Below are positions 29,801-35,800 of a DNA stretch of 64,000 nt, one piece after another. How positions within the stretch are numbered: position 1 is the first letter of the stretch; every line of letters begins with the position of its first letter. The stretch comes from Eledone cirrhosa (taxonomy: Eukaryota), in assembly GCA_964016885.1 (NCBI GenBank), contig OZ024750.1:620001-684000 (forward strand), given 5' to 3'. The notes under the pieces are model-generated. The model had not been told where the DNA came from. It was given only the letters and a program-made list of their open reading frames with translations, and ran no database searches. A program made the translations under genes and the position numbers.

Positions 29801-32800
29801 AAATGTTTGGGGCTTTACAACTTAACACAGGACCTCATTTGTCTTAAACCCGGCCCCGCGTATGTGGTTCTCGTACGATGATTAGGTGAATATAGATAGA
29901 TATGGTATCGTGATGAGTGTACAGTAGAGTTTTAAAGTTGTGACACACGTGTTGTGTGTCTGTTATACTTAGGAGGGTCATGCTGCCAATAACAAAACAC
30001 GCACCTGTTGGGTTTCAATTCAACTTAATTTATTGTTATAATAAACTGGAGTGAAACCCAACAGGTGCGTGTTTTGTTATTGACAACATGACCCTCCCAA
30101 AGTATAACAATATCTGTTTCAACACACGTTTTTAGATAAAAGATCTTGTAAAACAAATACAAAAACGATATATATATATATATAGAGAGAGAGAGAGATG
30201 ACTGTGGTTAAGGAGTTCGAATCGCAACTATGTATGCGTGGGCTTTACTATAGGATTGTGCGTGATTTGGTAGACGGAAAAGCCACATAAATTGAACCCA
30301 GGACATTACAACTCAACACACTAACCACCAGGCCATTACTAATTCTTTTTCTATAACACTTAAATCTATTTTTAATGTTCTCTTTCTTTTTTTCATGCTT
30401 GGCTGGGTCTGTAGTAGGTTTACAGCCCACCACCCCGGTCTAGCCAATATCCTAAAATATGATCTCAACACTTTATAGCTTCCTCCGTCGCACTTTTCTT
30501 ACACTTATAAATAATCAAGACACACACATACATACAATATATATATATATATATATAGCGTGTGTCTGTCTACACACACACGCACACGCGCGCGCGGTGA
30601 GAGTAGAAGTACAGATTAAAAATTTAAACAAACAATTTGTTTCCAACCTATTTCAGGAACAAAATTCTGTGTGTATGTATACACATGTGTGTATGTATAC
30701 ACATACATGTATGTATACACATACATGTATGTATGTGTATACATCATTTTAAAACTAAGACGGGATTCCAAATTCTAGCTGTCGTCTCGGAATAACAACA
30801 AAAGTAGGGTAAACTCAACAGAGCAGGTATGTTGTTTGTAGGGGGGGGGGGGGGGTATTAACTTACAGGTGAGAGAAGGTATGAGAAAACACGACAAGGC
30901 TATACAGGAGATATCGTAGTTGAGCACAAACAAGGGAAGAGGTGGGGGTAGATAGTAGAGAGACCATGGGGGGGGGGGAACAGATGTTTATTTAGTGAGA
31001 AACAAACATCGTTGGAGAGATAAAGAATAAAAAAAGAAGAATTGTGAGAAAGGTCACATATCTGAGCAACAGGGGTCAGTCTAGATCAGAGCAACAAGGG
31101 GACAATTGCCCTAGATTCTAGGGGATCGATTACATTGCTAGAAATAACTACCCCCCCCCCCCCCACCATACCGCACTCACATCGTCTTAAAAAAAGGAAG
31201 TTAATGTATTTATTTCATTTGATCAATTTAAACGTCCGTATAGAGCTGGTAAGCCATGACAGACTAGGAAAGGTATCTCCCCCACCATCCTCCGGGGAAA
31301 CACCTCTATTCTGTCCGGCGGGGCCACGAGGACCCCGATAGTGAGCAGTGACAGTAGGAGTTTGGTTCTTCTGTGTTCGAACCTGGTGTGTATATATATA
31401 TATATATATATATATAATATATATGTGTGTGTGTATGTAGACAAGGGAGAACGAGTCTTTGCCATCCTAATTGTTTTCCTTGTTATAAGGTAATTATAGA
31501 AGTATTACTTTCTTATAATTAAGAAATAAAGAAAAGAAATAAAGATGTAATGATCACGGTTGGAACGCTTTTGAACAATGAGTTCGGTCATGGTTGACCT
31601 GTAATTAAACAACTGAGGGCAATAAACTGACCGTTTCAGAGTATTCAAAAAAATCTCTTCATTTATCATTCTTAATTTCTCTTTACTAGTTTTCAACAGG
31701 AAGAAAACGAAAATAAATATAAATAATAAAATGTTTATAACCCAGAAAAAATTCCCGAACTGAATGAAAAGATATTTTAGTGTGAGAAATGTTACATAGC
31801 TCTGTCGCTACAATAATCACTGTGAAATTCACTCAAGTAAACAACTTGATAGAAGAAGTGAAGTATTACTTGTCCTCCATACTTTCAGTAAAACACAATA
31901 AGTACAATATTTTGGCGGTAGTTAAACAAACTGTGAAGAAATGAAATAAAATCGATATGAGACAGTCTCGAGTTGAACTTTACAGGTTGGATTAAGATCA
32001 ATGAAAGAAGGGTTTTCAGAATGTCCTGATCTGCCCTTTATGATCCCAAGGGTGGAGGGCATTTATCTATTTACTAACTTACCGGTTATGTAAAAAAAAT
32101 GGAAAGATTCTTTTACAAAACCGATAAAGAACTTTTATATTTGAGCTTGAAATAATAAATCGAAAATACCGCATCAGATTTGCTGGATTGATTACATATA
32201 ATACACATTAAGGTTAGGGGCTCCATCGTCGGATCGTGTTATACCTGAGCAATATTTAAAAATCATTTTAGTTCTTGTAAGGTCTTTTTAATGGAGCATT
32301 ATTTAACAAAGGAAAAATTATGCTGGAAGGTTTTTAGATAAATATAAACATTTAAAAACAGTTTTGTATTATGAAACCAAGGGACGTTTGGTATCAAAAG
32401 GTTTAAGAAACCAACATCAAATGTTTTTCTTCATATTTATTATTCCTTGTTTCATGAAAATAATTCACACAAAACCTTTCTTTTACAGCTACCATTACCA
32501 CCATTCCAGTCACTGAAGAAATTCTACCCTGGGTATAAACAACAAGGTGGTAGATTCAACAAGATTCATCTATTAACGTTGATAGGATGTAATAAATCGT
32601 GCCAGAGTAAACTATTGCACGACACAAGTGCATTACGCCTGTCCTACGCCCTCAACCAGGTTGGAGGTGTCCACTCTCTTGGAAACACACTTATTCAACT
32701 GTCAACATATGGCCAGGACAGTGTTGGTGGTACTGACAATAACCAATATATCTTTCACCCCATAGCTTACGGGCCATATCTGGCAGATAAATACGGTTAT

Positions 32801-35800
32801 CCAAATGTGTCCCAGTTACATGCCACAGATCCAATACAGACAATGAAGAAATTCTATGGGAAACAGGGGATACTGAGAATTATAACATATACTAAACAAC
32901 AAAACATGCCTAAAGGACACGTTGCATTGTGGGATTGTACACATTTCCACCAATCAAAAAACTGGTTGGTCAGTCATGAATTATTTACATTGGAATTCTG
33001 GGAATCTCCAGGTAAGACAATAAAGTTGTTAAACTTAGTTAACAATTAGTTCTACATTACAATAAGCCTGAGTAAACATGGCTTCTCGTTTAGATGGTCG
33101 TTCAACCTGCTAGAAATAGCACCCAAATCACATTTGCATGCATGGTTCTCCTGTAACTCCTGAAGGAGTCGTAGAGGGGCCATATTGACATACAGCATTT
33201 CTAGGGATTTTTTAAATGTCCTGGAGCTCATCTCCTCTGCAGGTCTGAATACAGCAACTTCTTCCTTTCAGGGTTGTTAAAATAAAGAAGCCGTCGATGG
33301 CAGTGGGTTAGCAGAAGTATTGGAGATTCAGAGAAGGAACTTTACAGTATTTGTGCTGACTCTTTGTATTCTGAGATCAAATACCACTGTCACCTACTTC
33401 TGTTGTGGACTTTAACACCACTATTTGACCCTTTGGTACCTTTAGTAGAGTCCATTCTGTTGCAAACATACTGACCAGTTCTCTGGTTTGAGAATAATTT
33501 CTTCTCTCCTTCCTACCAGTCTCATAGGCCCTTCCCTCCCTGACTAAACCATAAAAAAAAAAAGATTAACAAATAAATACAGTTTTGTCATTGGAACTGT
33601 AGCAGTGGAGATTTCTGGTGTTCTTGGTCCTAGTACTACCTCCCTAATCACTGCTATCAGGGCCACCCAAATGTGTAAAGCCCAGTGAGTTGGAATGGCT
33701 GTTTCAATGTATCTCCCTAACTATCCTCCTGGGACCACAATGTGCAGCTTGCACCTGAGGTTCTCTTGCCTGGGCTTGTATTATTGGGGTAGCAATGCTA
33801 TAGGGTGCCGATATCTACATCTGACGATACATACTTATCTAAATGCCTCCCCAGATTATTTAATACATGCTTAAAATAAATTCAAATTGTTTTAAATTTC
33901 AACTTTTCTAATGTAATTTTTGTTTCTATTTTTATCAGACTCCAGCTGCAACTTAACAGAAGATAACTATAAATGGCAAGATTATTACCAGAAAGCCGAT
34001 CCAGATGATATTGGCACAAAAAATGCTAAATCTCTAAGACACAAGGCTCATAATAGACACAAAGGAAGCCAACGCTACCAACATCTTCTACGATTAGTTA
34101 AAAGTAAACGACGGTCAAATTCAAAACACCAAAAAACTTTAGTAAGTTGAGTTGGGAGAGAATAAAGTTAATTAATTTGGCAGAAATCCATGACAAGTAT
34201 TTCAGAAACTGCAACATTGCCACATTAATGAAAGCAGAGCACCAAATATACTATTAAACTACTACTACGTAGTAAGTATTGTTTCATACTAATGTTCATT
34301 TTAGTTTGTGGCAATTGATGTCTTTAACCCTTTAGCATTTAAACCAGTCATATCCAGCCAGAATTCTCTCACCTTTTTCTCTTTAAACTGGCTGTAAACT
34401 GGCCACTCATATTGATGTTAAGGTATTGATCTCAAAATATCATAGATTCGATATTATGTGAGGTAAAGCCTTTACGATGAAAATAATATAGTAAATAGAG
34501 TAAAGTAAATACTAAAGGGTTAAGATGAGTAGATTAAGAAGAAAAAATAATAAATTTGCTACTAAATACCTTAAACAAGAGAAAACTTTTAAAACTCTTC
34601 CTGACATTCACTAATCTATATTTCAATAACTGTACAGAAGTGTTATCTGTGTCACATGAACATTATGGTGTGTCAAAAATGGGAGAGGAGGGCAAATGTT
34701 CTAAAATGCTTTAATTCATATCAGAAATCAGTTCTGTCAACAATTTTGTCTCTCAATATATATCTCTGTGTGTGTATACATAAATATATGTGTATATATA
34801 TATAATCCACAAATATAACTTTGTAAAAGTTTGGTGAAGGCAGGAATATTAGTTATTCCATGTATACCATATAAATGATATAATGGTTTGTTAATATGTC
34901 AAGAAGTCATTTCTCTGTAATAATCTACTTTAGTTTTCATTGGTTACTGAGAGACAAAAACTAAGATTGTTTCAGTACCAAACATTTTGGTAAAACATTA
35001 AGGAATAATTCTTCTGCCTAACACATCAGGAGATCTTGCTGTAGAGAAATACTTAAATGATTAATTCTCCTTGGGTCCAGTGAATAAACTAAATGACATT
35101 TAAAATTGATAACCAAACACACACACCAAATTGACAGGATGTCCCCCCAAAAAGTATACATACTTTGATTACCTGTACAGGCAATATTGTATACATTTTT
35201 GGGGCGACACCAAATTTATATGAAGGATGACTAAATATGTGTCCCGATTTGATCCCGGAGTCCCAAAGGATTAACTATCTAAAGATTATCAATAATCTTT
35301 GCAATCATGACTGCAATAGGAAATATAGCCATGTGGTAAATGTTTTCTATTTGTAATATAATAAAACTATTCTATAACCTTGAATTTTGTTGTTGTTGTT
35401 AATCTGGTAATGAAAGGGTTAAAGACTGTCTTTCATTAAAAATATGGTAATGAAGGGTTAAAGTGGCAGCATGGTAAGGTGAATATGATTGTTTCAAATA
35501 TAAGAGTAACACATGACTAGAAAGTAAACCTGTGATGAAATACAAATGTAAAATGAACTGAGAAATTCTGGGTAGATGATGAGAGAGAGAGGGTACATGA
35601 CTGTTGAGAGAGTGTGACAGAGAGAGAGGGTACAGAGAGAGAGGGTACATGAGAGAGTGTGACAGAGAGAGAGGGTACATGAGAGAGTGTGACAGAGAGA
35701 GGAGTACATGATGAGGGTGTGTGCCAGAGAGAGAGAGAGAGAGAGAGAGTGTGCGCACACAGGACTCAGGTGAACCACTAACAATCAGCAGTCAGGTCTG

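Follow-up and report, generated by a model that had tools for sequence, protein, structure and literature searches.

What does a gene of the Tae4 family, known as amidase effectors of the bacterial type VI secretion system (T6SS), do in the genome of Eledone cirrhosa? The gene in question lies on the plus strand of a 64,000-nucleotide stretch (contig OZ024750.1, positions 620,001 to 684,000; hereafter the window, to which all coordinates refer), and an original prediction, made on the letters alone, had described it as a bacterial effector gene domesticated in an animal. Our best reading is that of an ancient, horizontally acquired Dae4 gene (the name given to animal Tae4 homologues) coding for a secreted pseudoenzyme. 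In its full form, namely a spliced Dae4 gene of likely bacterial origin, the catalytic cysteine of which has been lost, and the product of which would be secreted and bind bacterial peptidoglycan without cutting it, we give this reading an even chance of being right.

The relationship to Tae4 was borne out by profile as well as by structure. The Pfam profile PF14113 (Tae4) matches the gene with E=2.6e-9 and 37.6 bits, for a cut-off of 27, and no NCBIfam family covers it. An AlphaFold2 model of the domain encoded by exon 2, built with 45 sequences, reached a predicted local distance difference test score (pLDDT) of 93.8. Upon comparison of this model with 48,161 Protein Data Bank (PDB) representatives by VIA-align, Salmonella Tae4 (4jur) and Serratia Ssp1 (4bi3) came out on top with a Z score of 17.2, the next score being 7.4, and superposition on Tae4 gave a root mean square deviation of 2.5 Å across 152 residues, at about 20% identity. 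The 11 Foldseek matches at E≤0.001 were all Tae4-family structures, with a best E of 2e-10. Over its whole length, the modelled domain has the papain-like NlpC/P60 fold of the bacterial proteins from Salmonella (4j30, 4jur), Enterobacter (4hfk), Serratia (Ssp1, 4bi3) and Agrobacterium (6ijf). In the ESM Atlas, the closest homologue, P0001, belongs to a 57-member eukaryotic, mainly molluscan, cluster of Tae4 domains adjoining bacterial Tae4 clusters. By profile and predicted fold, the E. cirrhosa gene is thus a member of the Tae4/Dae4 family.

It is made of three coding exons, for a total of 271 residues, arranged as follows.

28360-28440, plus strand: coding exon 1, 27 amino acids, hydrophobic leader and predicted signal peptide, phase-0 donor.
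28441-32488, plus strand: intron 1, 4048 nt, GT..AG, donor ACA/GTAAGT, acceptor TTTTACAG.
32489-33011, plus strand: coding exon 2, 523 nt (174 amino acids and 1 nt), entire Tae4-fold domain.
32627-32629, plus strand: codon AGT, which encodes a Ser in place of the catalytic Cys (Ser47 in exon 2 numbering, Ser74 in the 271-residue protein).
32918-32920, plus strand: codon for the His that aligns with the catalytic one (His144 in exon 2 numbering, His171 in the protein).
33012-33938, plus strand: intron 2, 927 nt, phase 1, GT..AG, at a position common to the animal clade.
33939-34150, plus strand: coding exon 3, encoding the conserved D-x-x-C linker together with a basic tail, up to the TGA stop.
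34151-34352, plus strand: minimum extent of the 3' untranslated region, up to the end of the X22 contig, with AATAAA at 34161-34166.

The original prediction placed the gene at 32489-34150, which is correct for exons 2 and 3, but overlooked coding exon 1. This exon was located by tblastn with P0001, the Octopus bimaculoides orthologue (E=3.5e-8); its ATG..GT candidate reached a score of 104, the runner-up one of 13, and its hydrophobic window of 3.59 classes it as a predicted eukaryotic secretion signal in a simple hydropathy test. Exon 2 is open throughout, between the TTTTACAG acceptor and a G/GTAAGA donor. Exon 3, 76% identical to its counterpart in P0001, contains 16 K/R for 6 D/E (pI 10.1), and its tail is also rich in His.

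Splicing of intron 2 at the predicted canonical sites could be followed in contigs of public runs (X1, X21 and X22, not on record as RNA). The X22 contig starts precisely at 32489 and ends at 34352, differs from the window by two letters, and lacks intron 2, as expected from the proposed 33011-33939 junction. Run X21, which bears the same organism code as X22, retains intron 2 and shows no difference from the window, and run X1, from another organism, is spliced at the identical intron 2 donor. In run X9, the exons had no cover at 85% likeness. The proposed polyadenylation signal AATAAA is present at 34161, but its use is not shown, because the X22 contig extends to 34352. By search, the gene is single-copy, with one PF14113 match in the 3.0-Gb genome. 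A second copy of the Cys type was not found with PF14113, which returned this gene only, nor with P0189 as a query, which gave no match in the genome, although this does not prove its absence. Very high-copy repeat fragments are present at about 32240-32410, 33130-33330 and 34320-34400, flanking and within the gene.

Is the encoded domain still an enzyme? In alignments to 4j30, 4hff and 4jur, the N-A-C motif of Tae4 pairs with D-T-S, and G-H-V with G-H-V. Ser47 of exon 2 (AGT) therefore stands at the place of the Salmonella nucleophile Cys44, and His144 at that of His126 (numbering corrected for a 13-residue tag offset). All the Tae4 motifs listed in the original prediction are present and in order, but the first of them begins on the Ser that replaces the catalytic Cys. 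No alternative letter was seen at the Ser codon 32627-32629 in the X21 and X22 contigs. Among the 102 homologues, out of 106, that cover the site, the residue is Ser in 93, Thr in 9 and never Cys, while the catalytic His is kept in 99 of the 100 that cover its position. The toxicity of Salmonella Tae4 requires each of Cys44, His126 and Asp137 (Benz et al., PMC3695027), and the third residue of the triad is found either at His+2, as in Serratia and Agrobacterium, or at His+11, as in Salmonella and Enterobacter (PMC6277958). The residues aligned to these positions in E. cirrhosa are Ala146 and Gln155. Of 125 Cys-His-type domains, 83 have an Asp at His+2, where most of 94 mollusc-type rows have Ala (77) or Val (13), and none an Asp. 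At His+11, the Salmonella Asp137 position, the same 94 rows have Gln (72), Glu (15) and also Lys, with no Asp. Judged from these alignments, both known triad-Asp positions are lost in mollusc-type rows. Conversely, R50, S52, N56, G127, H144, W148 and W171 are common to the E. cirrhosa gene and active enzymes, the His, Arg50, Ser52, Asn56 and Trp148 being kept from bacterial Tae4. Unlike bacterial Tae4, the gene combines the Cys-to-Ser change and the loss of the triad Asp with introns, a signal-peptide exon, the D-x-x-C linker and a basic tail. It also lies outside any T6SS locus, whereas the tae4 gene of E. albertii adjoins tai4 and hcp.

The nucleophile site is not kept as a serine outside molluscs. 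In 19 non-mollusc-type relatives, the nucleophile/His pairs were A/H (8), S/R (5), S/H (4), K/Y (1) and D/H (1), and among the 30 of 35 related metagenome loci that show the motif, the nucleophile residue was A in 15, S in 7, T in 4, G in 3, D in 1 and C in none. With Ala or Gly at this site and Arg in place of His in relatives, the nucleophile is not a conserved trait. Since the site drifts in sister lineages, to Ala or Gly for the nucleophile and to Arg for the His, the E. cirrhosa protein is quite probably a pseudoenzyme rather than a serine hydrolase.

The gene is probably an old resident of animal genomes. A profile search, over 1.84 billion representatives, gave 117 hits. All 32 of the 106 homologues that carry a species name come from molluscs (cephalopods, gastropods, bivalves and one chiton), so that the conserved orthologues expected by the original prediction in related species do exist. 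The closest, P0001 (O. bimaculoides LOC106884232), is 90% identical across the domain, and Argonauta is also close. Conservation across molluscs is strong, most full-coverage homologues having 51-90% domain identity. Beyond molluscs, the next tier includes the annelid Owenia, the brachiopod Lingula and the nemertean Tubulanus, the three entries with a name out of 10 looked up. The Cys-less clade is thus not peculiar to E. cirrhosa, but includes the sampled molluscs together with annelid, brachiopod and nemertean genes.

Members of this clade share an intron. An identical phase-1 GT donor follows the last Trp in 33 of the 35 metagenome loci (one of the other two is spliced, one was unscored, and several loci are near-copies), and most of the 35 also have an acceptor immediately before the domain. 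At the protein level, all 126 lophotrochozoan-type rows show the junction signature, as do 20 of the 21 rows of a group whose nucleophile site holds an Asp, versus 2 of the 105 rows of Cys-His type; in coral-type rows it is shifted by one codon, as judged by eye. The N-terminus was hydrophobic in 58 of 66 spliced full-length homologues, and the tail had a net charge of at least +5 in 47 of them. The Asp group (P0136, P0139, P0140, P0146, P0292-P0306), which shares the intron signature and in most members has Asp for the Cys and Ser for the His, lies on ENA contigs of up to 2.1 Mb. Numerous divergent copies, their nucleophile site occupied by Ala, Gly or Asp (L017-L022, L024, L028-L033, L035-L041), were also encountered, and suggest that the family has expanded in one or more animal hosts. 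Finally, Cys-His-type Tae4 domains preceded by a leader were seen on short contigs (P0172, P0210, P0250, P0253-P0258), at least P0172 and P0210 having an added small Cys-rich N-terminal domain; these are possibly another eukaryotic acquisition.

Related to these are the coral-type proteins (Montipora P0134 and P0230, Porites P0309-P0311), which consist of a leader, a Tae4-like domain and a Hedgehog-type Hint domain (E about 1e-44), and in which the Cys is kept and the His lost. These proteins may self-cleave. One Tae4-Hint protein is annotated 'indian hedgehog protein-like'. In a fragment, P0199, a mollusc-like W-x-x-P-D-x-x-C junction is joined to a Hint domain.

Trees were computed without the two catalytic columns. 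The degenerate groups unite with supports of 98/93 under the C20 model on 62 rows, the bootstrap being not fully settled, and of 100/98 under LG+G4 on 49 rows; the lophotrochozoan clade (98/99) and molluscs (100/100) were also recovered. A long-branch Cys-His row, P0203, fell inside the degenerate clade in a quick tree of 97 rows; the 62-row tree omits it together with 34 other long or redundant rows. These trees have no independent root and their backbone is not resolved, and as most Cys-His rows carry no species name, they point to no donor. A scan of GTDB with clade motifs gave five pattern matches, of which the only one that passed was a mere 19 amino acids long and was taken as chance. 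A bacterial origin is likely, given the wide occurrence of the family in bacteria and what other authors cite from Chou et al. The number of dae4 transfers into animals may be one or two: P0189 and P0138 were placed outside the Cys-less clade in trees, but a single clade joining them to it was not rejected by the approximately unbiased (AU) test (p=0.425), so that both scenarios are compatible with it. The intron held in common, together with the Hint fusions of corals, has a bearing on both the age and the number of these transfers. We would also propose, as a speculation, that one Tae4 transfer preceding the divergence of cnidarians and bilaterians founded a disarmed family, represented by the coral Hint fusions and by the secreted, Cys-less, basic-tailed lophotrochozoan proteins, which would add a hitherto unrecognised class to the pattern-recognition proteins for peptidoglycan.

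How could such a protein act? As the catalytic Cys is lost and the fold kept, it likely binds the cell wall rather than cuts it. It would be secreted via its hydrophobic N-terminal exon and would have no amidase activity. Cys150 of exon 2 could form a disulfide with the D-x-x-C motif of exon 3, the retained cleft would bind peptidoglycan stem peptides, and the basic tail might help adhesion to anionic bacterial surfaces or mucus. The protein could then take part in innate immunity, or in the control of the microbiome, in the role of a sensor, an opsonin or a trap. The antibacterial or peptidoglycan-related role put forward in the original prediction is plausible. There is a parallel elsewhere: in non-catalytic peptidoglycan recognition proteins (PGRPs), the fold of which is unrelated to Tae4, a Cys-to-Ser change turned an amidase into a peptidoglycan receptor. 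Our working model is mycobacterial RipD, an NlpC/P60 protein devoid of catalytic residues, which binds peptidoglycan and has a C-terminal extension (PMC12067865). The E. cirrhosa protein likely works in a similar way, by analogy, yet RipD is bacterial, does not belong to the Tae4 family and has lost both Cys and His.

Nematostella Dae4 genes were reportedly first identified by Chou et al. in 2015. They resemble the E. cirrhosa gene in being animal Tae4 homologues, one of them Cys-less, and in the secretion of nvDae4. This protein is a secreted, bactericidal Cys enzyme, the C63A mutant of which is inactive (Margolis et al. 2021, PMC8713801), and a second tae4 homologue without the catalytic Cys is, as the active one, induced by cyclic GMP-AMP (cGAMP) through NF-kB (PMC8713801). 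Animal dae4 genes, and one Cys-less copy, are thus already published in that report. The tick Dae2 is likewise a domesticated T6SS amidase effector of an animal, but it belongs to the Tae2 family, is more recent (about 40 My) and is catalytically active (Hayes et al., bioRxiv 10.1101/2020.04.10.036376). The transfer of Tae genes is also cited in PMC5303276. A search of the literature outside subscription journals brought up no paper on molluscan or cephalopod Dae4, its Cys loss or Tae4-Hint fusions, and the gene identifiers of orthologues returned nothing relevant. Mollusc genes may already be listed in Chou et al. 2015, because the gene is present in Lottia (P0015). The T6SS amidases domesticated by animals are familiar as retained weapons; the mollusc, and probably lophotrochozoan, copy was retained after being disarmed, and selection must therefore act on something other than cutting. 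If peptidoglycan binding proved true, it would make the protein a new immune sensor of molluscs, a phylum with aquaculture species and cephalopod symbioses, and a clear example of a horizontally transferred enzyme that became a receptor.

Several observations weigh against the peptidoglycan-binding pseudoenzyme. Residues near the site are altered in molluscs (Asn45 to Asp, Gly150 to Cys, and a W-x-D-A-T stretch preceding the His), and Arg90, found in 94% of active types, is a His in 72% of mollusc sequences; the cleft may therefore bind another ligand. The near-invariance of His144 in molluscs (99 of 100) would also be seen in a Ser-His enzyme, or if the residue bound a metal. Moreover, the Nematostella probe targets, read by eye, have NTCAIR and ATGHVDL motifs as in P0189 and P0138, and not those of the mollusc type. 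As the Cys-less copy of Nematostella seems to belong to a different sub-lineage, its immune induction is an analogy alone.

A possible, though less favoured, alternative is a non-immune extracellular role of the dead Tae4 fold, in mucus, in the shell or egg matrix, or in binding a host peptide, glycan or metal via a remodelled Asp/His cleft. The cleft is indeed remodelled, with His and Asp residues conserved specifically in molluscs (H44, D45, H62, H90, H111), the tail is basic and His-rich, and the gene, found once in the genome, evolves slowly, unlike many immune effectors. However, the protein retains the fold of a peptidoglycan-specific family and most of its core residues, and the animal Dae proteins assayed in the literature examined are antibacterial.

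An enzyme using Ser74 as a nucleophile with His171, and hydrolysing peptidoglycan or another amide or ester, appears improbable. Silicatein, a cathepsin-L derivative, offers a case where a Cys-to-Ser change made a new Ser enzyme. Molluscs do keep a hydroxyl residue (S in 93 and T in 9 of 102) and the His (99 of 100), and an acid might be provided by Asp45 or by Asp158, the latter found in 89 of 94 rows, with Asn in the E. cirrhosa gene. Yet in related lophotrochozoan copies the nucleophile is replaced by Ala or Gly and the His by Arg, both triad-Asp positions of Tae4 are lost, and AGT, one base away from a Cys codon, is the cheapest route to loss.

More improbable by far is an active Tae4-like cysteine endopeptidase, which the original prediction implied, and in favour of which the Pfam and fold matches can be cited. 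Here the prediction did not hold: the nucleophile Cys is a Ser and both triad-Asp positions are lost, no nucleophile Cys occurs in the window, the X21 and X22 contigs or the 102 homologues, and the neighbouring Cys34 and Cys38 are not conserved. A-to-I editing is unable to convert AGT into a Cys codon. As far as its sequence tells, the gene is not an active Tae4 cysteine endopeptidase, unless the invariant Cys150 should turn out to lie beside His144, as a migrated nucleophile. Lastly, bacterial contamination or a decaying pseudogene can be dismissed, given the introns, the spliced contig, the orthologues in named molluscs, the nesting of the gene in ANAPC4 described below, and the lack of any GTDB genome with a match of more than 19 amino acids to the clade motifs.

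The nesting was correctly perceived in the original prediction, and together with splicing it makes the gene a host-integrated, intron-bearing member of its family. It is antisense to ANAPC4, minus-strand exons of which were assigned on either side by exon-by-exon scans.

19487-39533, minus strand: ANAPC4 intron hosting the gene, about 20 kb, within a phase-consistent exon chain, the upper boundary being inferred.

Above the gene, PF12894 matches at 51342-51545 and PF12896 at 45889-46038, and residues 358-403 of the human APC4 chain from the PDB also match (E=1.3e-4). Below it, PF23405 matches at 19309-19485 and 18815-19129, under its cut-off, and human APC4 residues 636-677 weakly (E=0.22). 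The candidate exons at 42963-43049, 40907-41005 and 39536-39646 had no APC4 match, and candidate exon 39534-39647, which spans the last of these, had no family match of its own. In a whole-genome search for ANAPC4, PF12896 gave no match, the controls being silent too, and PF23405 a weak one. The 35 related metagenome loci, which are short, were examined for conserved nesting and gave no match to an exon of ANAPC4, kinase or RhoGAP type. Within the same ANAPC4 intron, a fragment of a long interspersed nuclear element (LINE), with reverse transcriptase and PHD-like parts, lies on the minus strand at about 20800-21900. Further away, exons of a kinase-like gene, which may resemble hydroxylysine kinase, occupy 7762-11563 on the minus strand, the segment 7763-8170 matching PRK06148 (E=1.7e-12) and, weakly, homoserine kinase. 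At the other end of the window, two RhoGAP-domain exons (61993-62895, plus strand, E about 1e-11) belong to a gene divergent from ANAPC4.

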